From contig OZ316891.1 of NCBI GenBank assembly GCA_973895155.1, positions 32,251,208 to 32,315,207 of the forward strand: DNA of 64,000 nucleotides, given 5' to 3'. The translations under genes and the position numbers were made by a program. Of the stretch, positions 8,945 to 53,295 are shown in pieces. Position 1 is the first letter of the stretch. The number at the start of each line of letters is the position of its first letter. The DNA comes from Marsupella aquatica (Eukaryota > Plantae > Marchantiophyta). The notes under the pieces are model-generated. The model had not been told where the DNA came from and searched no databases. It saw nothing but the letters and a program-made list of their open reading frames with translations.

Positions 8945-8994
8945 CAAATCACATCTTTTAAATAAATGTGATATTTGAACTAACGTAGCTTGTT

Positions 8995-14995: not shown

Positions 14996-15242
14996 GGCCC
15001 AATATGAAGACCCCTTCTCACCAAAACTATCATGAGCGCAGATCTGATCCCCAACCTTGGTTCCTTGGGATTGAGCTTGGGTGATGTGTGATAGAGTCTT
15101 GCTATGATAGTCTGGTGTTAAGGGCATAAATTGGTGTTTACCGGCCTTCACAACATCCCTTCGTGATCCTCAGGTACAAGGAGATGGTTTTGGCACCCAT
15201 AGTGACATTTTTGGTGTTAAGACCCATGTCAATCGCGTGACA
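14996..15242 (+). repeat. Duplicate of the last 247 bp of LTR-C (8698-8944)
   Basis: Near-identical direct repeat ending ...CGCGTGACA, followed by TSD GTTAA. Confidence 0.9.
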
Positions 15243-17959: not shown

Positions 17960-17972
17960 TAGCCTTTGTTTT

Positions 17973-17996
17973 TGGCGCTAGATGGAGGGGGCACTC
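17973..17996 (+). promoter_or_regulatory. PBS-like motif TGGCGCTAGATGGAGGGGGCACTC
   Basis: 13 nt after the LTR end and upstream of gag. Identical to 1206-1229. Confidence 0.7.
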
Positions 17997-18205: not shown

Positions 18206-19717
18206 ATGAACATACCACCGGGACCTTTGGGGTCTGGTCCAGCCGGTCCTGCTCTCGTCCCTGCTGCACCTCCGCCAGCACCACCACCGCCACCAGTACC
18301 TATGGCTGCCCCCCCACCGGCTATGGCCCGCGCTGCTCAAGCTCCCCCACAAATATCACAACGATCGCGGTTTCATTATCGAGCTTTCAAAGGGCGTCAT
18401 GGGGATGATCCGGATGAATGGTTGGATGAGTTTGAAGCCACTGCTAAGGCCAACGGGGAAGACGCCATTAAGCTAACCGTCCTCCCCGGAGTGATGCGGG
18501 GAGAAGCTCGTCCATGGTACAACTCGCTGCAACCCGGGATTACATGGGCACAATTCCAAGCCGCGTTGCTGCAAGAGTTTTGTGCCATTGGATCAATGCA
18601 GCGTTCTTTATTAAAGATCGGCCAGATTCGCATGGGGAAGAAGGAGTCCCTATGAAAGTTCATTCAGAAGTTTCAGAAACTTGCTGCCAAGATCTGGCCC
18701 AGGCCGGGAGACGCGCTCCAGCTTACGTGGTTCCTCCATGGTTTGCCCATGAATATGCAATTCTGGGTGCGCCAGAATAACCCAATTTCAATGCAAGCAG
18801 CCATAGCGTGCGCTGAAACCTACCGGGAGTCCACCTATAACTTCCGGCAAAGCCAGCGGGCACGCCGCAATAAGGGCAAGTATGAGACCTTCAATGATAG
18901 TGACTCTGAATCGGACGACAAGAAGAAGAAGAAATGCAAGAAGAAGAAGAAACATCGTTTGACCTCGTCCAGTTCGGAGACAGAATCTAGTTTGGATTCA
19001 ACTTCGACCAGCGGATCCTCCACTTCTAGCTCATCAGGAAGTGATTCAGAGAGCAAGAGCCGGGGCAAGAAGAAGAAGAGGCAAGTTAAGAAGGAGGGGA
19101 AAATCAAGCCCCGGGTTTGAAGAGCGATACCCGATCCAAAGGCCGCCAAAACAGACAAGCTTAATGAAATCACGGATCATCTCAAAGCATTGTCAGTACA
19201 TCTTGCGGAAAAGCCGGTGGAGAAGAAGAAGCCACCTGAGACCCGAGCCCATGCATGGTGTTCAAAGTGCCTCCAATCCGGGCATGTTGTGCAGGAATGC
19301 CCAAGATGGAAGAATCGAGTCCACCAGGTGGAATTAGATGATGTTGACAACCCGGGACCTGAATTGGAGTCCACGAAGTATTTCTTTGAAGACCCTTCTG
19401 ATTCGGTGTATCAAATTTCAACGATGGGTCCGGGTAACTTAGCAAGTAGAACTGCATACCCCTACCCAAACAATGGCAGGAGTTTCCAAGTTATCAGTAA
19501 CCTGAGCATTCCTCCTAAGCCAGGGATTTGGCGATCCCCGGTTTGTCACAACTGTGAGAAGCCAGGCCACTTTGCACGGGAATGCACTGAACCAAGACGG
19601 CAGGGGGATGGCCGAGGCAAGTCTGCAAAATGGAAGCTTGTTCCACGGCCAACTGTCCATTGGTAATAGCCGCTCAAACAAATGCAACAAGACCGGTCCA
19701 GGGCGGACCGGCCACAA
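18206..19717 (+). pseudogene. gag: gag of family-B element (stops at 18653, 19118, 19664)
   Basis: Capsid-like motifs (AFKGRHGDDPDEWLDEFE, RGEARPWY). CCHC knuckles CSKCLQSGHVVQEC and CHNCEKPGHFAREC. Interrupted by LTR-E at 19718. Confidence 0.9.
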
Positions 19718-20706
19718 TGTGATGCCTAGCCAAGAATCACTAGCCCGGTTTAATGGTAAGGCAGGAGTGTACCCTGGAAACACCTTAGTATAGGAACAAA
19801 ACAAGGAAAATATAAACAATTAAGGGTGACTATGGAACCCGGGCCGAGGCCAGAAGTAAGAATGCGGGGGGAGAAAACACGGTTAGGGTTAGGGCGCGCT
19901 AAGCGTCGGCAGCTAGGGGTGACCAACGGGAGGGAAGACCTTAGGAGGAGAGGGGTAAGGACCGCTCGCAAGGAATAGTGGCTCATTTGCAAGAATGAAC
20001 TGGGCAGACGACTATGGGAGGCCAATCGCTGTTAGCTGCTTAGGCAAGCACTCGGGGTGGGAACATATACCAACGATCGAGTCAAGGAGGTATGAGCAAC
20101 GTCAATCAAGCGGCACATTTTTGGGGATGCCTATTCAAACGGGCAACTGAGTACATTAGGACTTACGAGGATGAAGAATCGGAGAGAGCAGCTCGAGAAC
20201 GGCAGGAGCTTGCTCGACTGCGGGAGCTGCAGAAGTCTGCCTTCTTAGGAGGAGAACTCATCAAGGCTGAGTTCTTGTGGACTCCTACTGCCAATCAGCT
20301 CAATGACCTTCTGTTTTGCAAAGACAGAATCGTCGGCATTCGGGAAGCCATCAACCGCTGCAACGATGCGCACTGGGAGTTGAAGGGTAGCACGGAGGGG
20401 TGGACAAAGGCAACTGTTATGAGCAACGTTATTCAAGCGGCACATTTTTGGGGATGCTTGTTCGAACGGGCAGGTGAGTACATCAGGACTTACGAGGACG
20501 AGGAATCGGAGAGAGCAGCTCAAGAACGGCAGGAACTCGCTCGGCTCTGGGAACTACAGAAGACGGCTTTCTTAGGAGGAGAACTTATCAAGGCCAAGTT
20601 CTTGTGGACTCCTACTACCAATCAGCTCGACGACCTTCTGTTTTGCGAAAACAGAATCGTCGGCATCCGAGAAGCCATCAATCGCTGCAGCGACCTACAC
20701 TGGGAG

Positions 20707-22545
20707 TGTAGTTTGCTATAGAGAATCAAAAGAACTCTTTTACGTCTCTAAACTCGGTATTCGTTCCCGTTAAGAACAAGATTGGGTTGGTTTGATGAAA
20801 TAAACTAAAAATAAAGCTTTAAGCTGTTGTGTCACACATAGTAATCAATCTTGACTACTTTAATTAGGTACTTTGAAGATCGCTCCACAGCGGTGAGCAG
20901 TTTTTGATGATAACTCAACATCATATAACCATCAATTAATCAAAAGGTTGCAATTAACGAAACACAAGGAAAAATCTCTTAGAGTATGCTAAGGGAGTCT
21001 GGAATAGACCAAGGTTACTCCTTAGACATAAGTAATAATGGAATAACTTTAAGGGAATCCAAATCCACACGGCTTTTCAGATCTAAACTGCATACTAGAG
21101 TATCCTTTTAAAATGCTGGCAACATGTCTTGACCTTTCTTCCTAAGTGATACTTAGTCAAGATCTAAAAGGATAAATACTTCAGCATTTAGATGGTACTA
21201 AGCAACATGAAGGTGAAAACATCATTTCCAATGCAACTTAAACTCAATGAGTTAACTCTAAGAACTTGTGAGATTACAATGTGTCACCAAAGCGGAATCT
21301 GACATTATAATTCACGAGATTCATAACTGAGGTTTTACTTCAAGTATTTGGGTTCCAAAATACAAGAAGGAGGTAAGTCTCTCCAATTATTAAGTCTGAT
21401 TTAGAACTCGTAGGTTCAGAATCAATAGACTTAACAAAAGGGAGGCAAAAATGCAGAACTTAACCATCATCTACACTAGTGGTAGAGGGGTCTTATAGTA
21501 AAAATCTACTGAGTGAGAGGTCACAGGGTCGAAGAGACATGCCTCTTCATACCCCTCAAAATTTTAAAATGGCGATTCAGTAAGTGAAAAGCCGGAAAAA
21601 TGGCTAAGTATGAACTCTTAAACTCTTAAAAACTTAAACTCTTAAAAACGTAAAAACTTAAACTCTTAAACTCTTAATTTCAGTATACTAAAAATTGAGT
21701 AGATTCAACTATTTTTAACTTTCTACTCCTGGTTCGGAAAACTCTGAAATTTTTCCAGCAGGGTTTCCTAGGTACAGACTACAGCCTAAAGAAGTCTCAT
21801 AGCTTTTAAAGCTCTACAACACATTTAGAAAAATTGGTAAAAGTACTATACTTTTCAATACTAGCTAAAAAGATAGTCTCCTTCAAGCTTGTTGTCGAAT
21901 ATCATCGGGTTCGAGCAGCTCCACGTAGGTGACAGTCCGATTCTGTGTTACCTCCATCAGCTCAGTCTGACGTGGTGATCCTCGAGAGTAGGGTAGGCAC
22001 CTTAGTTGTCTCTCAGGATACATCAAAGGCATTCGCTTCATCAAATAACAGGAATCTATACGAAGAGCTTCTCTGTATATCCCGATCACATCATAGTTGT
22101 TGCAGGTAGCAGCATACACTTGAGGATAATGAAACAGGAACTCATCACTACTCATCATCCTGGAATAGAAGGGTCGAAGTCTCCATTTGACATCTCTGAA
22201 ATACCGGTTGAAGCTGGGCAGAGTTTGAGAGGTAAGGTGGAAGAGAAGTCAGTAATGAGCGCCTATGTCTTGCATTCCTTCCCTTTCAAGGTGAGCTCTT
22301 CATCCGTTGTGGAGTCCCGTTGAACTAGTTGTAAGATGTCACGATCACAGAGTCGCCAAATCTTAAGGTGTAACTCGTAAAGCAGTGAACTAGTAAACTC
22401 GTAAACTGAGTTTACTCGTAACTTAGGAACTTAATAACTTTGAATGCTGTTTTAGTTACAGTTAGCAATAATTGCAGTCTAAACACCGTAAAAAATTTAA
22501 AAATTTTCAGTTTCTTCATGCTTTTGGAATTACCCACTACTTACA
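20707..22545 (-). mobile_element. Solo LTR family A (1839 bp)
   Basis: TGTAG...TTACA termini. TSD GGGAG at 20702-20706 and 22546-22550. Host ORF resumes after it. Confidence 0.93.
21883..22158 (-). CDS. Small LTR-A-encoded ORF (91 aa)
   Basis: Homologous to 6178-6444 and 41820-42095. Confidence 0.55.
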   Translation of the reverse strand: MMSSDEFLFHYPQVYAATCNNYDVIGIYREALRIDSCYLMKRMPLMYPERQLRCLPYSRGSPRQTELMEVTQNRTVTYVELLEPDDIRQQA

Positions 22546-23395
22546 GGGAGTTGAAGGGTAACACGAACGGGTGGACGAAGGCAACCTTGCTAGGAGAAAC
22601 ATCCACGGCAGCCGAGATGAAGAGGAAAGGAAACAACAACAAAGAGGACACCCCGGCAAAAAGAACGAGGTCGGCGGCACCTAGGAAGCCAGCACCGCAG
22701 CAGAGCGGGACTAGGGGAGAAGCCGAGGAGGAAGAGGTCAATCCCATCAATGCCATTCCAACAGACAATGACACCTGGAAAGGCTGGGTGGCGACCCTAC
22801 CGGAGGAAGTGCAATTACACTTTGCACGAGAGGAGGATGCATGCTTTACAGCCATGCAGACCAAGAACTACCAAGGCTTCATGGCCGGATCCGGCTTGGA
22901 AGCCTTTGTAAGATTACCATGGCTGAAGTCGGAGGTGCCGGACTCAGACTTATTAGAATTTGTGGGATCATGGGAACCCGAGACCAATTCCACGAGGGTG
23001 TATGGGAAGGATTTCTATCTCACTCCCCGGGTGATTGCCGAGGTGTTTGGCTTGCCGATGGGTGATAAGACCAAGGTTGATACCAGGAAGACCTTACTTG
23101 ACAAGGAGTTTTGGTCGTTCCCAGGACCATCAACGAAGAATGGCTTTTTCCGGAACACCTGCACCAACCCACACATCGGAGAGATGATCGATTTCTTGCG
23201 GGTGACCATGCACTGTAACTTGCTGAGGGTAGAGATCAGCAAGGCTCAGGTCTACCTGGCAGAAAGGCCAGACCCAAGCCGGGATTATAACGGGTACCTC
23301 CTCAACCAACTGAAGGAGATCTTGAAGGAGGAATAGAAGGTGATCGGCGTGGGAAGCGTGTCCCGGCTTGGCTATCACATGCCGCTGTTGTGCCG

Positions 23396-26300
23396 TGTCG
23401 CACCCCTACCCTGGGCCTTAAATCCGGGTTAGTGTCGTGGTGCGACCTCGACCACCAGTAGGGGTGAGGGTTCGGGCAAGGAGGTGTGTAGTGACCTTCA
23501 ATAGCCCTAAGTTGGGCTAAGCCGCTATACTTACTGGTATAACACTCGCATAATTCGTACTTGTCATAGGTATATTTATTTTCCACCGCTGGAATTTTCC
23601 CTCAGTTAGTGACGCGGACTAACTCCCGACTTGGGGCTTTTCAAGCCATCGACGTGACAGGACCTTGTGACATGCAATGAGTGGCAATCCCTACCATTAG
23701 TCCGCACCCGGTACGTCCCTTAAAATGGCGCCTTTGCCCGGACAAAGCATACACACAACACCAGTTACTCTCAGAAACATTAAGGGGAAAAGACTACATT
23801 TACTCAGCGAAGCATCAGTTTACATGGTTGACTCGACTTCAAAGGGGGTCAGCAGGCCCAACGGCAGTCGATGCCCAGTCTCTACGAGGCCCTGCCTTGC
23901 ACTTGCCCAGCAAGCTCGACTCTGGCTCTCACTCCTTGGTACGCTCTGACCCTACTCAGGCCGGGACTCCCCGTGCCTCGCCTTTCTTCTGCTGAGATAA
24001 CTAAGCCTTCTCCCCCTTCCCATCGCGGAAGGGGAAGCCTAAATACTACCATAGCGGAAGAGAACCGGAGGATACTACCTTCCGGGGTACTACCTACTGA
24101 CTAACTAACTGCTGACTACCGGTCGCGCTGCACTGACCGGTTGACCGTCGACTACGAGTGTGCCAACCGGAATGGCAGCGGCCAAGCCTACTGACAAACT
24201 CTAGTCCGTTGATGGACTCAATCCTACGTTGGCTGATCCTAACTGACCGGCCCTAATTCTTCCTACTGCCGCTAATCGGCGCCTAATGACAGTTATTCTA
24301 TCGTTACGCCTAACTAAAAGATGCCGCTGACTTAACCGCCTCGCGCGGCGCCTGCTTCTACCCTTCGCTAACTACCCCTTACGTGTGTGCAGTGGTTGGA
24401 CCAGGGCTGGTCCCCTTGTCGGGGCGAGACCTCAAGCCGCCTTGATCAGAGGTGGGCCCAGGTTTTCCCCGCTGGAGGACGAGCAGGGTGACGCGGTCCT
24501 GCAAAGCCTTGTTGTCCCGTAATGCTTCCTCCGCCTCGTTTGCAGCTTTGTCGGCTTCAGTCTGGAGCCGCGCCACCTCCAAGTTGAGCTGGTCGATGGC
24601 GTCGCGATGGACCTGGTCCTGCGCTAGCAATTTATCTCGTTCGGCGGAGAGACTAGCCACCTGCTGTGCTGCCTGCAGGAATTGTTTGTTGAGGTCGGTC
24701 AGGCTGGTAACCCGAGCCAAAGATTCTGAGCGTAATTGAAGCACGGTGTCGTCCAGCTTCTTGAGTTCGGCCTGCGCTCCGCTTAACTCCTGGGTTAGTC
24801 CGTCCCTCTATTCGACAGTGCGGACTAAATCCTCGCGGCGGGTCGTTGCCTCCTCCTCGAGGTGCTCTACCAGCATCTGGAGACGCCCGATCTCATTCCC
24901 CTTCGCCATGAGTTCTTCTTCCAAGCGGCTGACGATCCGTGGTTGGTGCTCTAACATGAAGAAGGCTGGCTGAAAGTACGCCGAGACTTGTTGTCCGATG
25001 TATGTCGCCAACTCCCCAGACATAGTCTGGCTAAACTTCTGGACCAGGTCGTAGGCCATGGTCCCCGGGGCTACTTGGTAGTCCTCCATCCTCTTGGGTA
25101 CCGGTGGTTCCTCGGCAGGGGCAATGAGCTCCTCCGTAGTCAGCGCTAGGGAGGGGAAGGTTTCTTCAGGTGGTGGAGGGATTGGGGGTGGTTGTACTGC
25201 AGGTAGCGGAGGCTCAACGGAAGGAGGCGGTGGAATTTCCACAGGGGGCGGTTGCGGAGTATTAGTCGGGGCTTCCGGCTCGGGGTTTGTCCGAGGGACA
25301 GTAGTCCGCGTAGTCGGGGTTGCCTCCTCTGGGGTGGGGGTGACATTACCCGGGGCTGAGGTGGCCGTATTCTTTCCTCTGGCCTCCCACCGTGCCTTGT
25401 ACCAGGCGAGGATAATGGCGATATGACTCCCCAAGTAAGTCTTCCCTCCAATAGCCATACCACCCTGAGCCCGCTTCAGCTCCCCCGAGAATCTTCGGTA
25501 GAAGAATTGGGCCCAGTTTCGTCGTTTGTACTGTTCCACCTGCACTATCGTGCAGAGGGAAATCTCGGATCGTGGCTCAATCATGTGTAGGGTAGTCCGT
25601 ATGAAGTTAAGCCGCTCCATACAGGTTAAGTTGGTGCACGCCCCCTGCTTGTATCCGTTGTCCGTCTTACCCTCGGGTTTGAAGTGCCGCGGCGTATACT
25701 CCTTATCCCGAATTCGGATTTCCACCGGCACCGGCCCGGTTGGTAGGCCGAAAATTTGCGTTAACCGATGCTAGGTGAGTGATAAGGTCTGCCCCGAAAC
25801 CTTGGTGGTTGACGCATCAGTGTCAAAATTGGAGATGAACTCACAAATCTCCTTCGGCCCGGCGGCGCACGGCCTCCATAGTAAGTGGGCGAACCGCTCC
25901 AATTGATGCTCCTTGAGATAGTCCGCATGTTCGAGTTTCTTGATCGCGATCCAGACTACCTCGGGGACGCGGATTACCTGTAATAAGTTGGACTTTGGGT
26001 TATCCGGGGGCCGTCGGGTCTGGTTGGTCGGGGGGTTTGCCGGGGCAGGTGCAGGCGCGGCGTCGGTCCGTGTTGATTCGGGGGCCGTCATAGTCCTTGA
26101 CCGCTTATGAGGACGCTGTTCGAGTTGCGGACTAGCTCGCTCGGAACCCGAAGAACACTCCGCGTTGATTACTGGACGGACTTGGGACTGGTTCGGTGGT
26201 ACTCCGGTGGTCATCGGTTGAGGCGCTGGGGTAGCCATATCCCAATTGAAGGCGTTGGAGCTTTCCCTGAGGAACGTGAGATTACGCGCCGCTTCCCGTT

Positions 26301-27233
26301 GTCTGCTGATGTCTTCTTGGCGCTTTTCGGCTACGATCTGCTGGTCTAGGTACCCCGGAATCTTGTCGAACTCCGCTTGAGTAAGCCGCTGGTTGCCCTT
26401 CAGCTTAAAGAACTTAGCTGGAACCTCAAGAATCGCCTCTGCTACCGATCTAAGCCCTTCCTCGCTGAGATATAGTTCGGTGATGTAGTCTCGCAGCTCG
26501 TTATAGCTAGAATCCCTGGTGATGGCTGTCCTTTCGCAATTAACTAGTGCTACCTTGGTTACCAGCTTCGCGTACCTTCGTTCGTAAGCGGCTTTCTCGG
26601 GGCAAGAGTACCAGTAAGTCTCAGAGAACTTAGCACCTACCTCGCCAAACAAGGTCCAAAATCCCAAGGCTGTGAGGGTCATACTAACCTCGTAGTCCAG
26701 TTCGTTGTGTCCACGTTCCCACCTGGCTGGTCCTTTTTCGCGGAGGCCTCGCTCGTCCTGACTAAATCTCGCCACATTTCGCTCTTCTCCCTCGATAATT
26801 TCCTCGTAAAGGTCGACTGGATTCAATCAAAAAGGCGAGCGGATGGCAGCATCCGTGAATTCCAAAAAGGTAAACGTGAGCGAATGGCCCGCAGTGCCAT
26901 CGGCTCCTCTCTTATGGGGGTGCCCGGACGAGCTCGAGCGTGAGAAGGTCAGGCCGTTTGGTCATTGATAACGAGCTGAAGTCGGCGTCTCGGTCCAAGC
27001 GTGATTCTTCTAACTGATTTTTACTCCACTGCCGCCACCGTACCTTGGTCGTGCGTAATAATCCCTTTCCTGAACTCGTAATTATTCGGTTATCTTAACC
27101 TACTCCTAATCTAATCATAATGGCAACTTGACGGCTATACGTGCTATTCTATGCTATGGCTACGGTCCTAATGACCGTATAAGTCCTAATCTACGACCTG
27201 GGTTCGGTCAAGTGACACGTTACCCGTGTCACA
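23396..27233 (-). mobile_element. Solo LTR family D (3838 bp)
   Basis: TGTCG...TCACA termini. TSD TGCCG at 23391-23395 and 27234-27238. Its end matches the LTR preceding PBS+gag at 1247. Confidence 0.93.
24379..26826 (-). pseudogene. LTR-D-encoded ~815-codon ORF (PMD-like core, Pro-rich, coiled coil), two in-frame TAG stops
   Basis: ORFs 25771-26826, 24808-25731 and 24379-24744 share one frame. Core EFISNFD..LSLT..IFGLP.G..DNGY..ERLNFIR..LHMIEPRSEIS aligns with the 882-aa ORF. Confidence 0.85.
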
Positions 27234-29013
27234 TGCCGGTATGCCAGAAGTCAAATCTTTGCCCCAGTACTTCCCCTATTGGCAAGGGCACCGGAGGAGG
27301 TTTCGGAGCAGAGGCCGGCACCAGAGAAGCCCAACCAACCCGACATTCCAACGATCAAGCAGGTGTTTCGGACAAGGAAAGAAGCTGTGCCGATGTAGCA
27401 ACCAGGCATGCAAATTCTGCTGAACTTGCTGGAGAAGGAAAAGAGAACGGTTCCGGCAACGGCAACGGCAACGGCAACAATACAGGACGATGCCCCCGAG
27501 GTCGGCTTAAGCCGACTCAGAGGGGAAGATCCCTTTACCGGAGCCAAGGAGAGAAGGAGGCCAGAACACAAGCCGGGAGTGCGAATGTATGTGGGAGCCT
27601 CAAGCCCCGAATCAGAGGCAGAGCAGCCTAAGGCTCCTTTCCACGGAGAGCAGAAGGAGACGACAGCCTGGAAACCAGAGGAACCAGAGGCCGTTTTCAC
27701 GATTGGACCAGGGGAACAAGGGGAGAAGGCGGGAGTCCAAGTAGTGGAGGAGGCGGGAGAGGACTACAGCAATGATAACTCCGGCTATGGGTTGGATCAT
27801 CATGTTCCAGGAGTAAGGACCTGTGGCCAATTTATCCCCACGCTTCCAAGAGTAGTTTGAGGGGACCCCAACCAGCAGAGTAGCCCCGAGTCTCCCCCAC
27901 GAGAGATTTCTCCCCCAAGCTTTGATGGCATAAAGCAGACGGCACAGGAATTTCAGGAGTGACTTAGGGAGGAAGAGAAAGCAGCCCTGGCTAGGGAGAA
28001 GGATTTACCAGGAGGAGATTGGCCGGAGGACATCAGGCGGCTTGCCAAAAAAAGAAGCAACCCTCTTGCCACCATAGAAGAAATCCGCAAGACGGCTTGG
28101 GAGCAGAGGCCGCGGTGGGTAATGCCGATGACTTCTAGTTACTCCACCTATGCTAAGGATAGAGCCATGGAGTATGGGGAGATGTGTGGGGAACTGGCGC
28201 TCAGCATCTTTGGGGAGGAGTTGGAGCAGGGACCCTTTTTCCAGAGGGAGATGTTGGAAAAGCATCGATTAGAAGAACCGGTGGCTTTGGAGAGGAGCAA
28301 GAAGGACGAGGTCATCCGACGGCTTAGGGAGAAGGAAGCCGAGATGGAAATCCTGCAGGTGGTCAAGAAAGCCCAAGATGAAATACGGATTAAGCGGCAT
28401 GAGCTAAACATCATGCAGGGGCAGTTGGATACCACTCAGTCTGACAATCAGATTATCAAAGATAAACTGACTCTGACCCAAGGAGAGTTGGCCGGCGCAG
28501 TCAAGGAAAGAGAGAAATGGAAGCGGGAGCTAAGGGATGCAGAGGAGGCCCACTTAGCAACCAACAATCGGGCCATGGCGGAGAACCAGAGAAGGGAGAG
28601 GGCGTTGAAAGGAGAGCTCAAAGATATCCGCGGAGCCCTTGAGCAAAAGGAAGTAGAGTTAGGGAAATCCTATCAAGGGATTATTGCGCTGTAGCAGGAG
28701 CTTGCGTCCCTGACGGCCAGCTTCAAGGCTGATCTGCGTGAAAAGGACAACCAGCTCGACCAGACTTATGCCAAGATGAATAAAATGGAGTCTGTGGTCG
28801 TAGTAGAGCTCGACAAGGAGCTAAGAGCAACCCAGGAGGAGAGGGCTACCTTAAGGAGGGAATTGGAGGAAGCCAATAAGGAGCTGGAGGAGGCGTGCAA
28901 GGACCTGGACGAGACCCAAGAGGAGTTGGAGGAAATCACGAGAAAGATGGAGAACCTACAACGGCGGGCCGACAACCAAATGGAGCGGCTGAAGACACAA
29001 GCCGCAGTATTTA

Positions 29014-32000
29014 TGTGGTGCATCCCATGGCTCCCTAAACCCAAGAAACCCCCCAGCTCAAGCCGATTCCCGCAACTTTTGTGCTTGGCGGGGCCGTTTC
29101 CGCGGCTTAGCGGCATGAGACGCTGCTAATCTCCTCTACATCTATTAACAATTTACACACATATACTGGACAGATCCTTCATCGGGTCATGAGATATGAA
29201 GCCGGCCTACTCTAGGCCTTCCCTTGTCTTCCTCTCCTTTTGGTTAGGTGTATTTGGATTCCGCCGCCGGAATGATCCCCAATAGGCTTGGTTAAGCCGC
29301 TAAGACCTCTCTCAGCTCGACACATCCAACTCTCACTCCCTTGCTTACTTTCCTTCTCCTATTAGTTGATGTGGGTACTCTTCACACAAGTTAATGCGAC
29401 ACACAAATAGTAAAATGACTCCTTTTGACTGAGTCATACCATGCACTTGCCATACAAACAGTACATTTCATACACAAGCTCTGCGAACTAAGCCGTGAGG
29501 CCAACTCTATTCAGCTCTTAGGCATGAGGAAACATGAATATACACAAGGTCACTGTATGACTAACCGAGAGCTTCTCTTAGTACTTGATCCTAGCCCAGC
29601 TGGTGCAAACTAAAAACTTGCTAAAGAAGAGGCCCTGAGCTCCCCGCAGCCCAGGTATTTATCCTGGTAGCGGATCCGCCTAATTCTTTGCAGCGTAAGC
29701 CTAATCTACCTAACAGTAATCTACCTGCCCGGATCTACCTATGTACAGCAAGGTAGGGGCACAAGTGTTGCTCCTACCAGTGGAACCGCAATCCCACTAA
29801 GCTAAGTGTCAGGGCCGCTCCTGGTCCTGATCCTAATCTTAAACTTGGAGATCAGCGCCCGCCCTGCCCACTCACGCCTCCTACCTCCACGTCCGCCCTT
29901 CCTAAAAGGAACGGCGCCATTGCACCATCACGACACCGGTGGTGGATCCTCAATGGACGCCCCCAACGCTTCCTCTTCAGCCACTGCCGTTGGCCCGCCT
30001 ACTGACAGATTACCTGCCCTTGACCGAGTCAACTCTCCCTTGGCCTGAGCCACTCCCACGGCTTTGGCCTCCCCTTCTTCTAGGGTAGTTGGATCCTTTG
30101 CCATGACCCTGTCTGGGGTCGGTGCTGGGTCTACCTCCTTGGTCACCACGGCCTGTGGAGTCGTATTACTCCTTGACCCTGAAGGTTTCCGCTTCTTCTT
30201 TGTTTCCGGCTCGGCAGCTGGTCCCTTCCCCTTCCCACTTACTTTCGGCACTGGTGCAGGTGGTGCGGCTTGTTCTTCGGCCAGTACCACTCCTGGTAAC
30301 TGGTTCGCCCCAACGGGCGATGGACCTGCTGCAGCTAAGCATTTAAATACTGCGGCTTGTTTCTTCAGCCGCTCTGTTTGGTTGTCGGCCCGCCGCTGTA
30401 GGTTCTCCATCTTCCTCGTGATTTCCTCCAATTCCTCCTGGGTCTCATCTAGGTCCTTACGTGCCCCCTCCAACTCGTTTTTGGCCTCCTCCTGCTCCCT
30501 GTGGGCTTCCTCCAATTCCTTCTTCAAGGTAGCCCCTCCTGGGTTGCTCTTAGCTCTTTGTCGAGCTCTGTCACGATCTCAGACTCCATTTTATTCATCT
30601 TGGCATAAGTCTGATCGAGCATATCGTCCTTCTCCCTTAGGTCGGCCTTGAAGCTGGCCGTTAGGGACGCAAGCTCCTGCTGCAACGCAATAATCCCTTG
30701 ATAGGATTTCCCTAACTCGGCCTCCTTCTACTCAAGGGCTCCGCGGCTTTTCTCGAGCTCCCCCTTCAACGCCCATTCCTTTCTTTGGGTCTCCGCCATG
30801 ACCCGGTTGTTGACTGCTATATGGGCCTCCTCTGCGTCTCTCAGCTCCTTCTTCCATTTCTCCCTGTCCTTGATTGCGTCGGCCAATTCTCCCTGGGTCT
30901 GAGTCAGTTTATCCTTGATAATCTGACTATCAGCCTGCGCTGTGTCCAGCTGCCCCTGCATGATGTTCAGCTCATGCCGCTTAATCCGCAGTTCATCTTG
31001 GGCTTTCTTGGCCGCCCTTAGATCTTCAATCTCGGCTTCCATCCTCCTAAGCCACCGGATGACCTCGTCCTTCTTGCTTCTCTCTAAAACCACCGCTTCA
31101 TCTAATTGGTGCTTCTCCAACTGCTCCCTATGGAAAAAGGGTCCTACCTCCAACTCCTCCCCAAAGATGCCGAGCGCAAGTTCCCCACACATCTCACCAT
31201 ACTCCATGGCTCTATTCTTAGCGTAGGTGGAGTAAGTAGAAGTGATCGGCATCGCCCATCGCGGCCTCTGCTCCCAAGCCGTCTTGCGGATCTCTTCAAT
31301 CGTGGCTAGAGGTTTGCTTCCTTTTTTGGCTAGCCGCCTGATGTCCTCCGGCCAATCTCCTCCTGGTAAATCCTTTTCCCTAGCCAGGGCTGCCTCCTCT
31401 TCCTGCCTGATTCGCTCCTGAAATTCCTGCGCCGTCTGTTTTATGCCGTCAAAGCTCGGGGAGAAACATCTGGTGGGGGAGACTCAGGGCTACTCTGCTA
31501 GTTGGGGTCCCCTCGTACTACCCTTGGAAGTGTGGGGATAAACCGGACACAGGTCCTTACTCCTGGAACGTGATGGTCCGACCCATAGCCGGAGTTATCA
31601 TGGCTGCAGTCCTCCACTGCCTCCTCTACTTCTTGGACTTCCGGCTTCTCCCTCTCTTCTTCGTCGGTAGGAGCTTCAGGCAATTCTGCCTCAGATTCTG
31701 AGCTTGAGACTCCTACGTACATTCGAACACCCGGCTTGGATTCTGGCCTGATTCTCTCCTTATTTCCGGTAAAGGGGTTTTCCCTTCTAAGTCTGCTTAG
31801 GTTGACCTCTGGGGCAGTGTCCTGCATTGTTGCCGTTGCCGTTGTCGTTGCCGATCTCTTTTCTTTCTCCAGTAGTAGCAGATTCTGCATGCCTGGTTGC
31901 TGCATCGGCAAGTCTTCCTTCCTTGGCCTAAACACCTGCTCAATCGTAGGGCTAACAGGTGGTTGAGGCTTTTCTGCTACCGGCCTCGGTGCTGGAGCTT

Positions 32001-33568
32001 CCTCGGGTGTCCTTACCTGCAGGGGAAGTACTGGGGCAAAGGTCTGACCTCTGGCATACCGGCACAACAGCGGCATGTGATAGCCAAGCCGCGACACGCT
32101 CCCCATGCCGATTACTTGCTGCTCCTCCTTTAAGATCTTCTTCAATTGGTTGAGGAGGTGCCCATTGTAGTCCCGGCTTGGGTCTGGCCTCTCTGCCAGA
32201 TAGACCTGTGCCTTGCCAATCTCTGCCCTCGGCAAGTTACAATGCATGGTCACCCGCAAGAAGTCGATCATCTCTCCTATGTGTGGGTTGGTGCAGGTGT
32301 TCCAGAAGAAGCCATTCTTTGTTGATGGCCCGGGGAACGACCAGAACTCTTTGTCAGGCAAGGTCTTCCTGGTATCAACCTTGGTCTTATTGCCTATCGG
32401 CAAGCCAAACACTTCGGCAATTACCTTGGGAGTAAGATAGAAATCCTTCCCATATATCCTCGTGCAATTGGTCTCGGGTTCCCATGACCCCACAAATTCT
32501 AATAGGTCTGAATCCGGCACCTCCGGCTTCAGCCATGGTAATCTTACAAAGGCCTCTAAGCCGGATCCGGCCATGAAGCCTTGGTACTTCTTGGTCTGCA
32601 TGGCCGTAAAGCATGCATCCTCCTCCCGTGCAAAATGTAGTTGCACCTCCACTGGTAGAGTTGCCGCCCAGCCCTTCCAGGTGTCATCCCTGGTTGGAAT
32701 GGCATTAATGGGATCGACCTCCTCCACTTTGGCTTCTCCCTGCCTCCTGCTCTGCTGCTCGGCTGGCTTCATTGGTGCCGCCGACCTCGTTCTTTTGGCC
32801 GGGGTGGCTTCATCGTTGACGGCTCCCTTCCTCTTCATCTCGGCTGCCGTGGAGGTTTCTCCTAGCACCGTTGCCTGGGTCCACCTTTCCGTGCTACCCT
32901 TCAATTCCCAGTGTATGTCGTTGCAGTTCTTGATGGCCTCTCGAATGCCGATGATTCTGTCTTCGCAAAACAGAAGATCGTCGAGCTGATTGGAAGTAGG
33001 AGTCCACAAGAACTCGGCCTTGATGAGTTTGCCTCCTAAGAAAGCCGTTTTCTACAGCTCCCACAATCGAGCGAGCTCCTGTCATTCTCGAGCTGCCCTT
33101 TCTGATTCTTCGTCCTTGTAAGTCTTGATGTACTTAGTTGCCCATTCGAACAGGCATCCCCAGAAATGTGCCGCTTGATTGACGTTGCTCATACCCTCCT
33201 TAGGTCGATCGTCGGTATCTACTCTCTCCCCGAGTGCTTGCCTAAGCAGCTGACAGTAGTTGGCCTCCCGTAGTCGTCTGCCTAGTTTGTGCTCGCAAAT
33301 GAGCCACCATCTCCTGCAAGCGCTCCTTACCCCTCTCCTCTTCCGGTCCTTCCTCCCGTTGATCCTTCCTAGCCGCCGATGCTTAGCGCGCCCTAACCCT
33401 AATCGAGTTTTCACCCCCAACGTCCTTACCTCCGGCCTCGGCCCGGGTTCCATAGTCGCCCCTAATTGTTTATATTTTCCTTGTTTTGTCCCTATACTAA
33501 GGTGTTTCCAGGGTGCATTCCTGCTTTACCTACTTAACTGGCCGAGTGATTCCTGGCTAGGCATCACA
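29014..33568 (-). mobile_element. Solo LTR family E copy 2 (4555 bp)
   Basis: TG..CA termini identical in type to copy 1. TSD ATTTA at 29009-29013 and 33569-33573. Confidence 0.93.
29928..33453 (-). pseudogene. LTR-E-encoded ~1100-aa ORF (PMD-like core + long coiled coil), stops and frameshifts
   Basis: Pieces 33082-33453, 31498-33009, 30728-31252 and 29928-30527. Core LEAFVRLPW..LLEFVGSWE..LTPKVIAEVFGLP.G..NGF homologous to B and D ORFs. Confidence 0.85.
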
Positions 33569-35578
33569 ATTTAAATGCTTGGCTTCATCAGGTCCAACTC
33601 CAATTTGGGGAACCCAGTTACCAGGGGTAGTATTGGCCACTGGACAAGCCAAAACACTCACCCCGGTGCCAAAGGTAGGTAGCAAGGGGAAGGAACTGGC
33701 TATCAAAATAGGGAAGAAGAAGAAGCAAAAACCTTCTAGGTCTGGGAGTTATACGGCTTCTCAAGCCGAGGTGACCGAGAGGATAAACCCGACACCAATC
33801 TCCGGCATCAGCACGGCGGTGGATCCACCAGTCCTAGGAAGTGGAGATGGACCGGATCCTCCGCTAGAACATGCCGGGGAGGCCTGAGCCGTATCGGAGG
33901 CCTGAGCCGTATCGGAGGCCAGGACCGATGATGAAGCCAAAGCCGGGGGTGGACCCAGTCAGGCCGATGAAGAGTTGACTCGGTCAAGGGCAGGTAATCT
34001 ATCAGTGGACGGACCAACGGTAGTGGCTGCGGAGGAAACGTTGGGGGCATCCATTGAGAACCAGCCACCGGTGTCATGACGGTGTAAGGGCGCCGTCCCT
34101 TTTAGGGAAGGCGGACGTGGAGGTAGGAGGCGTGAGTGGGCAGGGCGGGCACTGATCTCCAAGTTTAGATTTAGGATCAGGACCAAGAGTCGGCTCTGAC
34201 ACTTAGATTAGTGGGATTTTGGATCCACGGGTGAGGGCGACACTTGTGCTCCGGCCTTGCTGTACATAGGTAGATTATAGTTAGGTAGATTACAGTAGAT
34301 AGATTAGGCTTACGCTGCAAGGAATCAGGCGGATCCACAACCAGGATAAGTACCTGGGCTGCAGGGAGTTCAGGGCCTCTTCTTTCGCAAGTTTTTAGTT
34401 GCACCAGCAGGGCTGGGATCAAGTAGTAAGAGAAGCTCTCGGTTAGTTATACAGTGACCTTGTGTATATTCATGTTTTCTCATACCTAAGAACTGAATAG
34501 AGTTGGCCTCACGGCTTAGTTCGCAGAGCTTGTGTATGAGATGTACTATTTGTATTGCAAGTGCATGGTATAACTCAGTCAGAAGGAGTCATTTTGCTAT
34601 TTGTGTGTCGCATTAACTTGTGTGAAGAGTGCCCACATCAACAAGAAGAAGAGAAGTAAGCAAGGGAGTGAGAGTTGGATGTGTCAAGCTGAGAGAGGTC
34701 TTAGCGGCTTAACCAAACCAATTGGGGATCATTCCGGCGGCGGAATCCAAATATACCTAACCAACAGGAGGGAAAGACAAGAGAAGGCATAGATTGGGCC
34801 AACTGCGTATCTCATGACCCGATGAAGGATCTGTCCAGTATATGTGTGTAAAATATTAATAGTAGTAGTAGGAGGTTAGCAGCATCCCATGCCGCTAAGC
34901 CGCGGAAACGGCCTCGCCAAGCACAAAACCTGCGGGAATCGGCTTGGGCGGGGGGAGGGTTTCTTGGGTTTGGGGAGCCATGGGACGCACCACACACAAG
35001 CGATGCAGTCGTCCAAATGATTGTTGTGGACTGGCAAGATGACAACACCGAGTGGGTAAATTTGGTGGACGTGGCGGAGCACCCTAATCCATCTGACGAG
35101 GCTGAGTGCTACCAAGTGTCAACAAGAGCCAAGCGGAAGGAAGAGAAACAGGAAGAGAAACGCAGGAAAAAGCAAGATACTACTCCGGTGTAGCCAGCAA
35201 TAGATATACCCCCGAAGAAGGACAATGACTACCGTCAAGACGACCCAAAGCTATTTTACCCCCACACCGAAGAATTGGTAAAGAAACAGTTGGAGGCCTA
35301 CGAAGCTCAAGAATACCAGAAGGCAATCAATAAAGACATCAAAGTAGCCGAGGCTGCCCGGTGATAGGAGCAAGAAAAGCAAGAGGAGGAAGCCAAATAG
35401 CAGCCGAAGGAAGAAAAGGAGGACTATGATATTAAGGCAGACGTGAAAAGTTGCCCGGTTACAGCAACGGTAGGGGCAACTGCTGCAGAACAATCCACAG
35501 TACCGACGGCAACTGAGGGAGTTGCTTACCGGTCGGCGACGGAGGTGACTACCCCGAGTTGGGATCGCGGACTGCAAC

Positions 35579-36549: not shown

Positions 36550-36921
36550 AGGTGTTTACAAAAGACAGCAAACAGGAAACAGGATTTAATAACATAAACT
36601 GGTAACAGGTTAAAAATCTGGTAACAGGAAAATGGGTGGAATTTTCTTTTGATTTTTTTTGAAATTTTTTTTTTTGAGAAAAAAAAAGTTTTTTTTTCCG
36701 GTCGACCACTTTTTTTTGCTAGCGCCCGGTGCTGCTAATAGTAGCGCCCAAAGCTAGCCAAAAATATTGCATTGTTAATTTTTTTTGGAAATAACATGTT
36801 TTAGGAGACATTTTTAAATTGTCATTTTTCCTGGTAATAGTGATTTTTTCCTGGCAATAGCATTTTTAAAACAGGAAAAAAAAATCCTGTTTTCCTGTTT
36901 CCTGTCTCCATCGCTATACCC
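36550..36921. mobile_element. 372-bp MITE-like insertion in pol
   Basis: Flanked by direct repeat GGGACAACG (36541-36549, 36922-36930). AT-rich. Imperfect terminal IR containing AGACAG(C/G)AAACAGGAAA(A)CAGGATTT. The 9-bp TSD suggests a Mutator-type element. Confidence 0.7.
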
Positions 36922-36934
36922 GGGACAACGTTGC

Positions 36935-38362
36935 ATGAACCCAAGGTACTCCATCTTAGTGAAGGAGGAAATTGACCGTCTCCTCGCCGCAGATTTCATC
37001 TACTCGGTAATGGCTAGCGACTGGGTTTCGCCCAATGTCATGTTACCAAAGAAGGGAGGTACGGAAAGAAAACCTAAGATTTGGATCTATCAAGACTATC
37101 ATAAGTTGAACGACGCAACCCGGAAAGACCATTACCCGTTACCATTCACGAATATGGTTCTAGATATGGTAGCCCGAAACAAAATTTATACATTCCTTGA
37201 CGGGTATTCGGGTTATAATCAAATTTGGATCCGCCTCTTGGATCAGCTCAAAACAATGTTCACTACGGAATGGGGGACATTCGCATTTCGGAGAATGCCG
37301 TTCGGGCTGTGTAACGCCCCGGCCATGTTTCAGCGACTCATGATGAATATCTTCCACGATTTCCTACGGGAATTTCTGGAAATATTTATCGACAACTTTG
37401 CCTTCTTTGGAACCATCGCCATGCACCCCGAACATCTACGACGTACGCTACAACAATGCCGAGAGGTTAACCTCAAGCTTTATCCCGCCAAATATTTTTT
37501 TGGGGTAGAGGAGGGAGTGTTACTTGGGCATCGTGTGTCCAAACGGGGTATCGAGGTGGACCAAGAGAAGGTCGCGGCTTGGATGGCGGTGGTGTTTCCC
37601 GTAGATCAAAAAGCGGTACGATCCTTCTTGGGCTGTGTAGGGTACTATCGTCAGTTCATTAAAGATTTTGCTAAAATTGCATTGCCCTTAACTGAGATGA
37701 TGAAGAAGGACGCGGTAATCAAGGAGACACCCAGGAGACGGATTGCTTTCGAAGAACTCCGTAAACGACTCACCACCGCACCTATCATGGTCACCCCGGA
37801 CTGGAATAAGGAGTTCCATGTGTATGTCGATGTGTCAGGGTTCTGTATCGGGTCCGTACTCAGTCAGCTTGATGAAGATGGACGTGACCACCCCATCTAC
37901 TTTGCTAGCCGTCAACTATTCACAGCCAAAAAAAATTATTCTCCCATTGATCGAGAAGCTCTAGGAATAATCTACTCATGTAAGAAGTTCCGACACTATC
38001 TGCTTGGCTACAAGGTCATATTCCACACGGATCATGATAGCCTGAAGTATATGGTCAACAAAGTGAACGTGACGGGACAGATAGCCCGGTGGGTGCTACT
38101 TCTCCAGGAATTTAACTACAAAGTTTGGGTTTGGCCAGGAAAGGCACATCTCAACGCCAACTTCTTTTCAAGGCTGGACGGCATACCAGTCAATCAACCA
38201 ATTAATGATACTTTTCCGGATGAGGAGTTATTCCACATAGGGGCGGGAACGCCTACGTGGTACGGTTCAATAATCACCTTCCTCTTAACAGGCCGCATCC
38301 CCGACGACATCAATCAGGAGGCCGCCACTGTGTTTTTATGGAAGGCCAGGCCATACTTATGA
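36935..38362 (+). pseudogene. pol: Reverse transcriptase + RNase H
   Basis: WVSP..PKK, DY.KLNDATRKDHYPLP, FLDGYSGYNQI, MPFGLCNAPA.FQR. YxDD is degenerate (FIDN). RNase H motifs VYVDVS..G.VLSQ, REALGIIY, TDHDSLKY. Confidence 0.95.
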
Positions 38363-39510
38363 TACAGGGTCACCTACATAAAGAAGGAGTTAATGGGAAG
38401 CTACGACGCTGCTTAGAGTACAAGGAGACGCTCATTGTTATGCGGGCCTTGCATGAAGAAGAAGCTGGAGGTCATTTTGCGTCTCTCACGACAGCCCGAA
38501 AGATTCTGGATTTGGGGTATTGGTGGCCTACGTTGCATCGAGATGTACAACGCTTTATCAAGGGATGTGATTTGTGCCAACGGGCTGGTGCCCCAAGGAG
38601 AACCCATAACCACCCCCTCACTTCTGTGCTCCCGCTAGCACCATTCGAGAAGTGGGGTATTGATTATATCGGGCCGTTCACTCCCGTTACCCGAAGACGA
38701 AGATGCAGGTACATCCTGCTAGCTATAGATTACTCCACCAAATGGGTCGAAGCACGGGCTACGGTAAAGGACAACGCTACAACCAGTGCCAGGTTCTTAT
38801 ACGAGCAGATCTTCACGCAGTTCGGGCTGCCCTTGGAATTAGTAAGCGACCCGTGGAACACATTTCCTCAATGACACCGTAGCCCAGCTTACGGAGCGTT
38901 ACCTAGTCAAGCACCGCAAGACTACCCCGTATCATCCTAAAGCCAATGGGCTGACAGAGAGAGCCAATGGGATCATTGGGAAGATCCTCAACAAGACAGT
39001 AGCCGTGCACAAAACGGATTGGGATGACAAGTTGTACGTAGCGGTGTACTCATATAATCTGGCTTACAAGACTACTACGAGTCACAGCCCATACTTTCTC
39101 GTGTTTGGCCAACATTTGTTGGTGCCCGTTGAGTTTGAAGTCCACACTCCACGGGTAAGCATTCGGGATCGCTTACCCGAAGCTGAAAGTTTGTCAGACA
39201 GAGCTTACCAGATTGAAGCATTAGAAGAAGCACGGCTACTGGCAGCTTGACATGTCGTAAAGCAGCAGGTAGCTTCCAAGAAGCAGCACAACAAAGGACT
39301 ACGGAAGGTCGACGTCATGACAGGCGATCTAGTCTTGCTGTACGACAGTAGGTACATGCAGTTTCTGGGGAAGCTTCATACCCATTGGTTAGGGCCTTTC
39401 CTAGTCAATCAGATCTATCCTAACGGATCTTTGGAACTTGCAACGTACGCCGGCGATTTACTACCCACGCGAGTTAGTTATGATCGTGTGAAGAAGTACC
39501 ACTATCAAGA
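38257..39510 (+). pseudogene. Integrase (frameshifted)
   Basis: HHCC (LHEEEAGGHF..GYWWP..CDLCQR), WGIDYIGP, IDYSTKWVEA, LVSD, TTPYHPKANGLTERAN, and GPF motif (KLHTHWLGPF). Confidence 0.92.
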
Positions 39511-39565: not shown

Positions 39566-40442
39566 TGTGATGCCGCCGATACGACGGGTAATGAGTGATC
39601 CGGTCTAACCGCGCTTAGCATGCGCGTTAGGGGTATCTTAGGCCGTTATTATTAGCATAACAACAGTATTTAGGTAGCCATTATGAGTAGGAAATCATTA
39701 GTCAATAAGGGGAATTCATGTTCGGGCTGGCGGTGGGTCTCCATTCGCACGCCCGGGTTGTGAGCGTGTAATGGGCCCCCTTTCCCCCCTCAGGTCCGTA
39801 TAACAAACCCCGAGAGGCGGCCACTGACACGAGTTGACCCGGACCGGCGAAGGGGCCGGTACACTGCGAGCATGAAAGGCTTGGCCTATAAGCGACAAGG
39901 AGGCGTCGGGCGATCGACGAGCTCTCAGGGTATAAAAGGTGGCCGATCCTTTGCAGTGCACCAATTCTTCAGTTCACGCGCTAGCTTTGACCCCGTCTCT
40001 CTCTCGCTTTTCCTTAGTCACCTGTTATCTCCTCTGAATGTCGCACACAATCCTTTCCAGTTTGGCCATACGATTTTGGACTCAGTTCCTGTCTATCAGA
40101 GGGCACTTGGCTGACTCATTGAAACACGCCAACTTGCGCCGATACGAGATTGAACGCGAATACAAGAGAGCCATCCGCCTAGCAGGACAACACCACTATC
40201 TCCTTAACTTTGATTATCCATCCCAAAGCGAGCTTTACCGACCCAAAGAAGTATCAGGGTACTTCTTTGACAAAGGAAAATACATCGGCTTCTAGGAGGC
40301 ATTGCTTTGGCTCCCGGATGAGGTCTTCAATATCCCGGGCACGATCAACTTGCAGCGGCACCACTTCGGCCACATCCCCGCTCGGGTCCGGGTTATCATC
40401 AACAGCGAGTTCAGCACTACCCGGTCGACAGGGCCGTCTGCA
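39566..40442 (+). mobile_element. Truncated 3' LTR of family B including start of LTR ORF (ATG 40038)
   Basis: TGTGATGCCGCCG matches the start of the solo LTR at 47156 (minus strand). MSHTILSS ORF start is conserved. Confidence 0.9.
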
Positions 40443-40589
40443 GATGTTGCATCAACAACAGGCCCTTTATCTATTCCCTTCCTCTTCTTTGACTTGGATG
40501 ATCTGGTAGAAGGACCAACCTCTGTAGCAAACTCAAACAAAACTGCTATATCAGTACCAATGTCAAACAAACAAGTCACAGAGTCACCA

Positions 40590-53158: not shown

Positions 53159-53295
53159 TCTCGGATTTAGTAACCTGCACAATTTTCAGAAAAACCATCA
53201 CAAATCCGAATGACAAGAATTTGAAGAGACTCACAATTATCCATACGGTCATTTGATTGCCATTCCGCGAATCCAAACGTTGGCTCAACTATCAC

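Follow-up and report, generated by a model that had tools for sequence, protein, structure and literature searches.

The 64,000-nucleotide stretch of Marsupella aquatica DNA considered here (contig OZ316891.1, positions 32,251,208 to 32,315,207 of the forward strand; hereafter the window, in whose numbering all coordinates are given) is repeat-rich eukaryotic DNA in which self-blastn and reading of the junctions reveal retrotransposons nested in each other. Three divergent families of long terminal repeat (LTR) in the window, which we call A, D, and E, each carry one long open reading frame (ORF) in the sense orientation, and our subject is this accessory gene, the protein it encodes, and the short motif that clusters on both sides of it. 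The nest is built around an outer E-type LTR (19718-34994, plus strand; target duplication CACAA), which separates, as an insertion, the gag of a Ty3-type element from its pol and is itself cut by three insertions. Inside it lie a solitary C-type LTR of 1.8 kb (20707-22545; duplication GGGAG), a solitary D-type LTR of 3838 bp (23396-27233, minus strand; target duplication TGCCG) with the ends TGTGACAC...GTGCGACA in element orientation, and a solitary E-type LTR of 4555 bp, E(-) (29014-33568, minus strand; target duplication ATTTA), with the ends TGTGATGC...GCACCACA. The target site of the D insertion is visible uninterrupted in the E(-) copy at about 32060, and the empty site of the E(-) insertion is visible in a paralogous copy at 3409-3413. 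The A family is represented by a solitary LTR of 4012 bp, A(-) (43145-47156, minus strand; target duplication AGAAC), by a copy in two pieces, A(+)2 (4842-about 5786 and about 16005-17960, plus strand), which is split by an insertion of roughly 10 kb and after whose 3' end come a motif resembling a primer-binding site (PBS) and gag, and by an LTR start, A(+)1 (39566-40589, plus strand), which begins TGTGATGCC and includes only the first 168 ORF codons. The A(+)1 start is about 0.7 kb past an integrase zinc-domain ORF and has a purine-rich stretch ahead of it.

The core-bearing units are true LTRs of related Ty3-type elements with a common PBS-like motif, which bears out the proposal of the initial annotation that the conserved core of the accessory protein is LTR-encoded. 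The complete A and D units and both E units start with TGTG and finish with ACA, giving TG..CA termini with short inverted ends, and all four are flanked by 5-bp target duplications; the best reading of units that stand alone between duplications in this way is that they are solo LTRs. When four public sequencing runs (X1, X2, X5, and X6) were compared for A(-), contigs joining 43139 to 47157, which represent the empty site, were found in X1 (one), X2 (three), and X5 (two), with none in X6, and sequencing depth shows extreme abundance of both the A and the E family in two of the four run organisms. The PBS-like motif, TGGCGCTAGATGGAG, is 15 nt long and TGG-initial, and its two exact matches in the window are a count that none of 100 shuffles reached. 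One (17973-17987, plus strand) lies 13 nt past the end of the A(+)2 LTR, and the second (1215-1229, minus strand) lies between a chimeric LTR (1247-4853, minus strand) and a Retrotrans_gag ORF (156-914, minus strand), 17 nt past the end of the chimeric unit, whose last kilobase is D-type; both stand just past the end of a core-family LTR and ahead of a gag ORF. At the 3' end of E(-) (29014), one contig each from X5 and X6 runs via a few T residues into the reverse complement of the motif, so E-type units adjoin it in other genomes, in line with the earlier expectation that E copies would be found beside a PBS. A tRNA scan found no tRNA gene in the window. The element carrying the A-type LTRs has a gag-side zf-CCHC ORF (19121-19666, plus strand) and a pol with Pfam domains (36818-38874, plus strand) made up of an RVT_1 and RT_RNaseH ORF (36818-38362, plus strand) and an Integrase_H2C2 ORF (38224-38874, plus strand); A(+)2, gag, pol, and A(+)1 follow one another in the correct order, and the purine-rich stretch before A(+)1 is weak. 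The chimeric LTR consists of the 3' 2.4 kb from an E-type LTR in antisense and the 3' 1.15 kb from a D-type LTR in sense, joined at 3-4 nt of microhomology, and with the PBS-like motif and gag coming next and no core in the unit, it shows that a D-type 3' kilobase can serve beside the PBS without the ORF.

The layout of the gene-bearing LTR is the same in A, D, and E: a leader of 400-550 nt with a TTAGG cluster is followed by an ORF of 2.3-3.1 kb that ends 900-985 nt before the end of the LTR, by a second TTAGG cluster after the stop codon, by about 600 nt with two conserved non-coding blocks, and by the CA end. The A ORF (44042-46690, minus strand; protein P0001) is intact and encodes 882 amino acids, arranged as an N-terminal domain (residues 1-170), a proline-rich linker with a basic patch, the core (residues 311-510), a further proline-rich segment (residues 511-650), and a coiled coil (residues 651-882), with a proline content of 19% in residues 171-310 and 511-650. 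In the case of D (24379-26682, minus strand), there is one frame of about 767 codons from a methionine aligned with the A start, with two in-frame stops at 25771-25773 and 24808-24810. The E copies are broken, being split over frames or interrupted by insertions: the ORF of E(-) (29928-33051, minus strand) is in the frame pieces 31498-33051, 30728-31483, and 29928-30578 and has an acidic and proline-rich middle and a coiled-coil tail, and in the outer E LTR the core occupies 22812-23395 and the coiled-coil ORF (27963-29013, plus strand) resumes at 33569. The N-terminal domain (46181-46690, minus strand, in A) is common to A and D and absent from E, and no Pfam or protein-atlas relative was found for it in the A protein. 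The basic KRK-type patch upstream of the core, the proline-rich linkers, and the coiled-coil tail are present in all three families.

A family hidden Markov model (HMM) run over all six frames finds exactly five copies of the core in the window, two on the plus strand (5112-5657 in A(+)2 and 22812-23399 in the outer E LTR) and three on the minus strand (25387-25980 in D, 32041-32643 in E(-), and 45161-45781 in A(-)). The core spans about 200 residues with a between-family identity of 25-41%, and the cores align significantly, as the initial annotation had expected: by BLASTP, the E(-) protein matches the intact A protein at 4e-20 and the D protein at 8e-21, and D matches A at 1e-49. The 27 invariant columns of the five-core alignment reproduce the residue pattern that had been described for it (EF..., T, L, FGLP.G, NG, C, E, F.R, H, R.EI), and the proline-rich and coiled-coil segments reported to follow it are present. 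That annotation had also placed three divergent families sharing the core, lettered B, D, and E, within 23396-33568; the sharing holds, but only D and E lie in that interval, the earlier letters are not mappable onto ours with certainty, and the third family, A, is at 43145-47156 and 4842-5786/16005-17960. Its description of the flanks as unalignable is correct by blastn but overstated, because a MAFFT alignment of the post-ORF parts of the LTRs (43145-44044, 23396-24381, and 29014-29930) recovers short non-coding blocks that are common to A, D, and E at a fixed distance from the LTR end. The first block, C.GGGGAG, is 575-635 nt before the LTR end, and the second, the near-palindrome TTCCRGCGGYGGAA, is about 170-240 nt before it; the two are candidate promoter/R and poly(A) regions, and, with these blocks conserved in the three families, the LTRs share ancestry as wholes and not in the ORF alone.

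Judging from its codon substitutions, the accessory gene is under purifying selection. Between the A copies of the core, nonsynonymous differences per site (pN) are 0.11 versus 0.74 for synonymous differences (pS), with synonymous sites saturated and an omega of about 0.04, and omega is 0.21 in the coiled coil, 0.17 in the N-terminus, and 0.29 for the E pair; the gene is a selected one and not a decaying passenger. Among the contig differences in the A ORF, 15 of the 29 best-supported ones are at third positions, a small selected subset, with 365 further differences, that is not leaned on here. Word-indexed protein searches returned nothing for the A core among full-length candidates and one or two fragments for alignments, and are uninformative on the range of the family because next to nothing was returned. 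With the HMM run exhaustively over 1.84 billion representatives, relatives were recovered in 91 clusters at E<=1e-3, in 38 at E<=1e-10, and in 4 at E<=1e-30. In the 30 clusters looked up, all 16 named members are from liverworts, Calypogeia fissa (13) and Riccia sorocarpa (3), and all are entered as unnamed protein product, hypothetical, or uncharacterized, two of them with titles taken from a DDE Tnp4 fragment; these names by themselves point to a liverwort as the likely source of the window. Three Riccia sorocarpa homologues (P0060, P0061, and P0090) lie in gene models with fragments of a DDE_Tnp_4 (PIF/Harbinger-type) transposase, and these are either gene-model chimeras of nested transposable elements or a second carrier of the domain. 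An IQ-TREE analysis of 37 cores places E with two database proteins (support 100/100) and A with three others (90/86); the cores of the three window families are united in only 16% of bootstrap trees and separate in 84%, with the backbone unresolved. The architecture of an LTR-borne gene fits an old diversification rather than a one-off capture, as the initial annotation had argued, with the purifying selection, the 91 clusters of relatives, the liverwort-named members, and the splitting of the cores in most bootstrap trees all pointing in this direction.

An AlphaFold2 (AF2) prediction of the core from a 40-sequence alignment gave a confident alpha/beta model, with a predicted local distance difference score (pLDDT) of 93.2 and a predicted template modeling score (pTM) of 0.88; an earlier AF2 model from 5 sequences (pLDDT 54.6) was discarded. 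The top Foldseek match in the Protein Data Bank (PDB) is the VANC21-DNA complex (9lnj_A; probability 0.99, E 0.019, template modeling score 0.52), all PDB rows other than VANC21 having E>2, and the structural alignment covers 208 of 221 residues at 9% identity. From this model, the fold predicted for the core is that of VANC21 in its DNA-bound region. Among the viral structures of BFVD there was no match at E<=0.001. Pfam searches with all core ORFs and the five cores at E<=10 gave chance-level rows only. In the 54 homologues, PF10536 has no match at E<=0.01, and PF20167 is matched by 8 at 17-32 bits (E 1.6e-7 to 6e-3) with most of the model covered, all eight being below its gathering score of 45 bits and none from the window. 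When the 22 closest family members were compared by hhalign with 5 of these 8 PF20167-like homologues, the two aligned with 97.7% probability and E 2e-12 over 199 columns, a result that relates the family to that subgroup, itself only sub-threshold for PF20167. The nearest named clusters of the core in a protein language model are PF20167, ATHILA, and DUF1985, all with scores below 0.9. The earlier suggestion that the core recalls the plant mobile domain (PMD) and related plant transposon proteins is therefore partly supported, indirectly, by the VANC21 fold and by the distant PF20167-like relatives, and not as family membership.

The clusters of TTAGG that flank the gene are in the following places. 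In A, the first cluster (47020-47095, minus strand) has five copies at LTR positions 62, 73, 105, 116, and 133, upstream of a TATAAA (LTR position 359) and of the ATG (467), and the second (43879-44023, minus strand) has five copies at 3134, 3140, 3181, 3222, and 3274, all within the first 160 nt past the stop codon. In D, there are three copies in the first cluster (27105-27189, minus strand; LTR positions 45, 63, and 125) and five after the stop codon in the second (24038-24313, minus strand; 2921, 2948, 2978, 2992, and 3192), and in E(-) there are four in the first (33241-33465, minus strand; 104, 167, 173, and 324) and five after the stop codon in the second (29679-29905, minus strand; 3664, 3733, 3856, 3865, and 3886). 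The motif is absent from the ORF in A (2.65 kb) and D, and in E it occurs there at 530, 1638, 2519, and 2854. In a k-mer ranking over six flank regions, consisting of the first 200 nt of each LTR and the 300 nt after each stop codon and compared with the window background, TTAGG was the top 5-mer and ATTAGG the top 6-mer, with TTAGG counts of 5, 5, 3, 4, 3, and 5 against a background of 1.08 per kb, and among the ten best of each length, only TTAGG and ATTAGG were present at least twice in all six regions. The 64 kb contain five clusters of at least four TTAGG per 200 nt, all of them in A, D, or E LTRs and in the orientation of the ORF, and in C-type LTRs, gag, and pol the motif is at background. 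A tandem-repeat scan found no long tandem arrays of the VANC style around the motifs in the LTRs, only short degenerate runs.

The closest comparator for the core is VANC21, the anti-silencing protein of the Arabidopsis VANDAL21 transposon, which binds a 9-nt motif arrayed one way in the non-coding DNA of the element and causes loss of methylation (PMC5735166). A 2026 paper (PMC13547354) reports structural homology between VANC21 and MAIN, a PMD protein, and also coiled coils with predicted oligomerization in VANC and in proteins with the Athila domain. PMD-C proteins oppose Polycomb at specific DNA motifs (bioRxiv 10.1101/2024.09.27.615353). The liverwort protein is like VANC21 in that the latter is the sole significant structural match of its core, in being a transposon-encoded accessory protein with a coiled coil, and in that the one-orientation target motifs described for VANC21 resemble the TTAGG clusters of the A, D, and E LTRs. 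It differs from VANC21 in that sequence similarity is undetectable, and it differs from VANC in several further respects: VANC carries DUF1985 and DUF287 (PMC5735166), for which there is no Pfam match in the window cores or the 54 homologues; its host is a dicot VANDAL (MuDR-type) DNA transposon and not a liverwort LTR retrotransposon; its gene lies outside the terminal repeats and not inside an LTR; and its targets vary between families, whereas the window families share one motif. VANC has been described as dicot-specific (PMC13547354) and the PMD as an angiosperm domain (PMC7156037).

The L..FGLP.G motif of the core presumably resembles a motif of the PMD. The likeness to the PMD (PF10536; MAIN, MAIL1, and the ORF1 of Ogre) otherwise runs through the structural homology of VANC21 with MAIN (PMC13547354), through its being a transposable-element-associated domain in extra ORFs of Ty3-type elements, including 57% of Ogre elements (PMC6317226), and through the action of PMD-C proteins at specific DNA motifs; besides the lack of PF10536 matches, a difference is that the PMD ORFs lie between the LTR and gag and not within the LTR. 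In the case of Transposase_32 (PF20167) and Athila ORF1 (PF03078), the likeness is a remote sequence link via the sub-threshold homologues, and an extra ORF at the 3' side of sunflower Athila elements has partial PF20167 similarity and a nuclear localization signal (PMC11728184); here too the known ORFs are internal to the element, and the window gene is in the LTR. Rice Retrosat2 and its relatives resemble the window families in having LTRs longer than 3 kb together with a lineage-restricted ORF0 (PMC3485330), but there is no sequence relation to the window core, and the extra ORFs of Retrosat-2 and its relatives are classed as 5' additional ORFs (aORFs), by position relative to the GAG-POL ORF, and not as LTR ORFs (PMC11728184).

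Taken together, we propose that three divergent LTR families carry a sense-oriented accessory gene whose product has a core of the VANC21 fold and likely binds the oriented arrays of (A)TTAGG at the two ends of the gene, a reading to which we give a probability of roughly 45%. The protein would be nuclear, as the KRK-type patch upstream of the core in all three families suggests, and may oligomerize through its C-terminal coiled coil. By analogy with VANC, the core would recognize the (A)TTAGG arrays to either side of the gene that encodes it, and the protein would keep its own LTR family transcriptionally open and the chromatin permissive; a possible route would be that DNA or histone methylation is counteracted, as VANC does, and an alternative one that Polycomb is opposed, as PMD-C proteins do. 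As to expression, U3 is the most likely place of the ORF, given that the conserved blocks downstream of it resemble a conventional promoter/R/U5 of about 600 nt and that the chimeric LTR retains just the D-type kilobase beside the PBS. Genomic RNA would then start near the C.GGGGAG block and carry the ORF at its 3' end, and the ORF may also have a promoter of its own in the leader, where the TATAAA of A is 108 nt before the ATG, including in solo LTRs. With its place inside the LTR, the gene is present twice in every insertion and once in every solo LTR. We consider unlikely, though worth stating, the fuller version of this proposal, in which each LTR is a self-contained anti-silencing cassette, that is, a promoter-holding repeat in which a gene for a sequence-specific DNA-binding protein of the VANC/PMD fold sits between its own (A)TTAGG target arrays, and in which solo LTRs act as protectors of the family in trans.

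The placement in U3 has a parallel in the sag gene of mouse mammary tumor virus (MMTV) and the nef gene of human immunodeficiency virus (HIV), which are retroviral ORFs in or overlapping the U3 of the LTR. As would be the case here if the ORF is in U3, an ORF in the U3 of the 3' LTR is duplicated into both LTRs; the proteins and hosts are unrelated, however, and the viral ORFs are short relative to the LTR-internal gene of the window.

A number of considerations weigh against the proposal. DNA binding, the role of the motif as a target, nuclear location, oligomerization, and an effect on silencing are all putative. None of the five window cores matches PF10536, PF20167, ATHILA, or DUF1985 even at E<=10, so that the comparison with PF10536 and PF20167 put forward in the initial annotation came out negative, and a sequence search of the PDB with two profiles gave coiled-coil noise only and no match to VANC21. 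One short motif is common to all three families, and the targets of VANC paralogues have diverged; a shared motif suits a conserved host factor equally well. The limits of the flank regions were not blind, since TTAGG was first noticed by eye, before the k-mer ranking. No LTR pair is comparable, because the A(+)1 and A(+)2 remnants, which belong to the sole full element, cover different parts of the LTR; A(+)1 is without most of the ORF, and its similarity to A is lost after about 1 kb. Finally, the sole strict TATA box in A (TATAWAW) is upstream of the ORF, a position that suits an ORF in R/U5 or an ORF with its own promoter no less than one in U3, and pattern scans for TATA boxes and poly(A) signals are sparse and inconsistent between families and do not settle U3 versus R/U5.

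The alternative that survives best, somewhat doubtful in our estimation but the foremost contender, is that the protein is a replication or structural accessory like Athila ORF1 or the Transposase_32-type ORFs and not an anti-silencing factor, acting for example in the handling of RNA or particles, in nuclear import, or in the targeting of integration, and that TTAGG represents enhancer or host transcription-factor sites belonging to two LTR promoters. The chain of sequence similarity does lead to Transposase_32, which is called Athila ORF1-related and of unknown function in the sunflower work (PMC11728184), the clusters are upstream of a TATA box (in A and E) and of the C.GGGGAG block, and the recurrence of the same motif across families with such divergent cores suits a conserved host factor, so that the sharing of one motif by three families favors this alternative somewhat. 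Set against it are the identity of the sole structural match, which is a DNA-bound anti-silencing protein, the basic character of the core (pI 9.4), and the one-orientation arrays in the non-coding parts of the element, which mirror the targets of VANC.

A second alternative concerns expression only and is improbable: transcription would start no more than a few hundred nucleotides into the LTR, and the ORF would lie in a very long R/U5 as the first ORF of the genomic RNA, like the 5' extra ORF of Ogre or Tekay but upstream of the PBS. The position of the TATAWAW of A and a TATAAA at LTR position 95 in E would agree with this. Such an arrangement would, however, require minus-strand strong-stop DNA of about 3.5 kb, the non-coding blocks at about 600 and about 200 nt from the LTR end suit a promoter/R/U5 downstream of the ORF, and the chimeric LTR retains only the D-type 3' kilobase beside the PBS. 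Much less probable still is that the core is a captured fragment of a host gene, carried as a decaying passenger with no role for the element. Most window copies are indeed broken, and some Riccia homologues are in gene models with DDE_Tnp_4 fragments, but an omega of about 0.04-0.3 between LTR subfamilies with saturated synonymous sites, the identical position and layout in three families, the intact copy in a solo LTR, and the lack of a functional annotation on any of the 16 named relatives all argue otherwise. That the 3.8-4.6-kb units are self-standing mobile elements of another kind and not LTRs can be practically dismissed, since, although all four complete units are solitary and none has internal terminal repeats, they have TG..CA ends and 5-bp duplications and encode no transposase, reverse transcriptase, or other enzyme, the PBS-like motif and gag come directly downstream of unit ends, and a unit start (A(+)1) lies downstream of integrase.

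Several other features of the window stand apart from the accessory gene. There are two C-type solo LTRs of 1.84-1.89 kb with the ends TGTAG...TTACA, at 20707-22545 (duplication GGGAG) and 40590-42482 (duplication CACCA), each with a (AACTCTTA)n array and with neither the core ORF nor TTAGG clusters. The sequence that follows the C-type and A(-) insertions (42483-43139 and 47157 onward) is not A-like yet is high-copy, as judged from the high depth of the empty-site contigs, and may be another chimeric LTR type or the result of a deletion. In the outer E LTR, a 327-nt tandem duplication (20091-20707; 1.9 copies, 87% identical) lies in the leader and the N-terminal part. Within the insertion of about 10 kb that splits A(+)2, a pair of 247-nt direct repeats (8698-8944 and 14996-15242), 97% identical and 6.3 kb apart, encloses an ORF with an F-box match (8989-9597) and may represent either a duplicated segment or an LTR element of small size. 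An ORF of 1272 amino acids (49367-53185, minus strand) has a strong DUF7869 match (E 1.6e-43) and is adjoined by tandem arrays at 53285-54400 and 55493-56114 whose units measure about 66 nt and 34 nt, together possibly another kind of mobile element; a minus-strand element with this ORF and with A(-) as its 3' LTR was considered and rejected, as A(-) has its own target duplication and empty site. ORFs in 59114-61637 match a short fragment of a DNA methylase (N6_N4_Mtase) and a NIF-type phosphatase, and around them are unexplained long ORFs at 56128-59198 and 62256-63905.

Extra ORFs are common in plant LTR retrotransposons, are functionally opaque, and are described as lying between the LTRs; those encoding the PMD, Transposase_28, and Athila ORF1 are in the internal region in Ogre, Retand, and Athila retrotransposons (PMC6317226; PMC11728184). 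A selected long ORF inside the LTR in three divergent families is a departure from this placement. In open-access full text, we came across no account of plant LTRs that contain a long conserved ORF; a review of plant extra ORFs has none of the phrases on LTR location that were looked for in it; and a liverwort genome paper gives the Athila, Tat, Phygy, and Selgy lineages and no LTR-internal gene of this kind. The novelty lies in the position and the host group, both new for an accessory protein of a known class, and in the candidate target motif. The analysis offers a concrete, testable pairing of a protein with a motif, in which the core domain is set beside the (A)TTAGG arrays, and it raises the question of whether solo LTRs, which are usually seen as inert scars, can be protein-coding loci. 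If the proposal is true, VANC, the PMD, Transposase_32, and Athila ORF1 would be joined into one superfamily, and the cassette version would help explain the very high copy number of these families. Moreover, the VANC/PMD fold, and perhaps motif-directed anti-silencing with it, would reach back to early land plants, such that anti-silencing of this type by this fold would be an ancient strategy of land-plant transposons and not an invention of the VANDAL elements of dicots.

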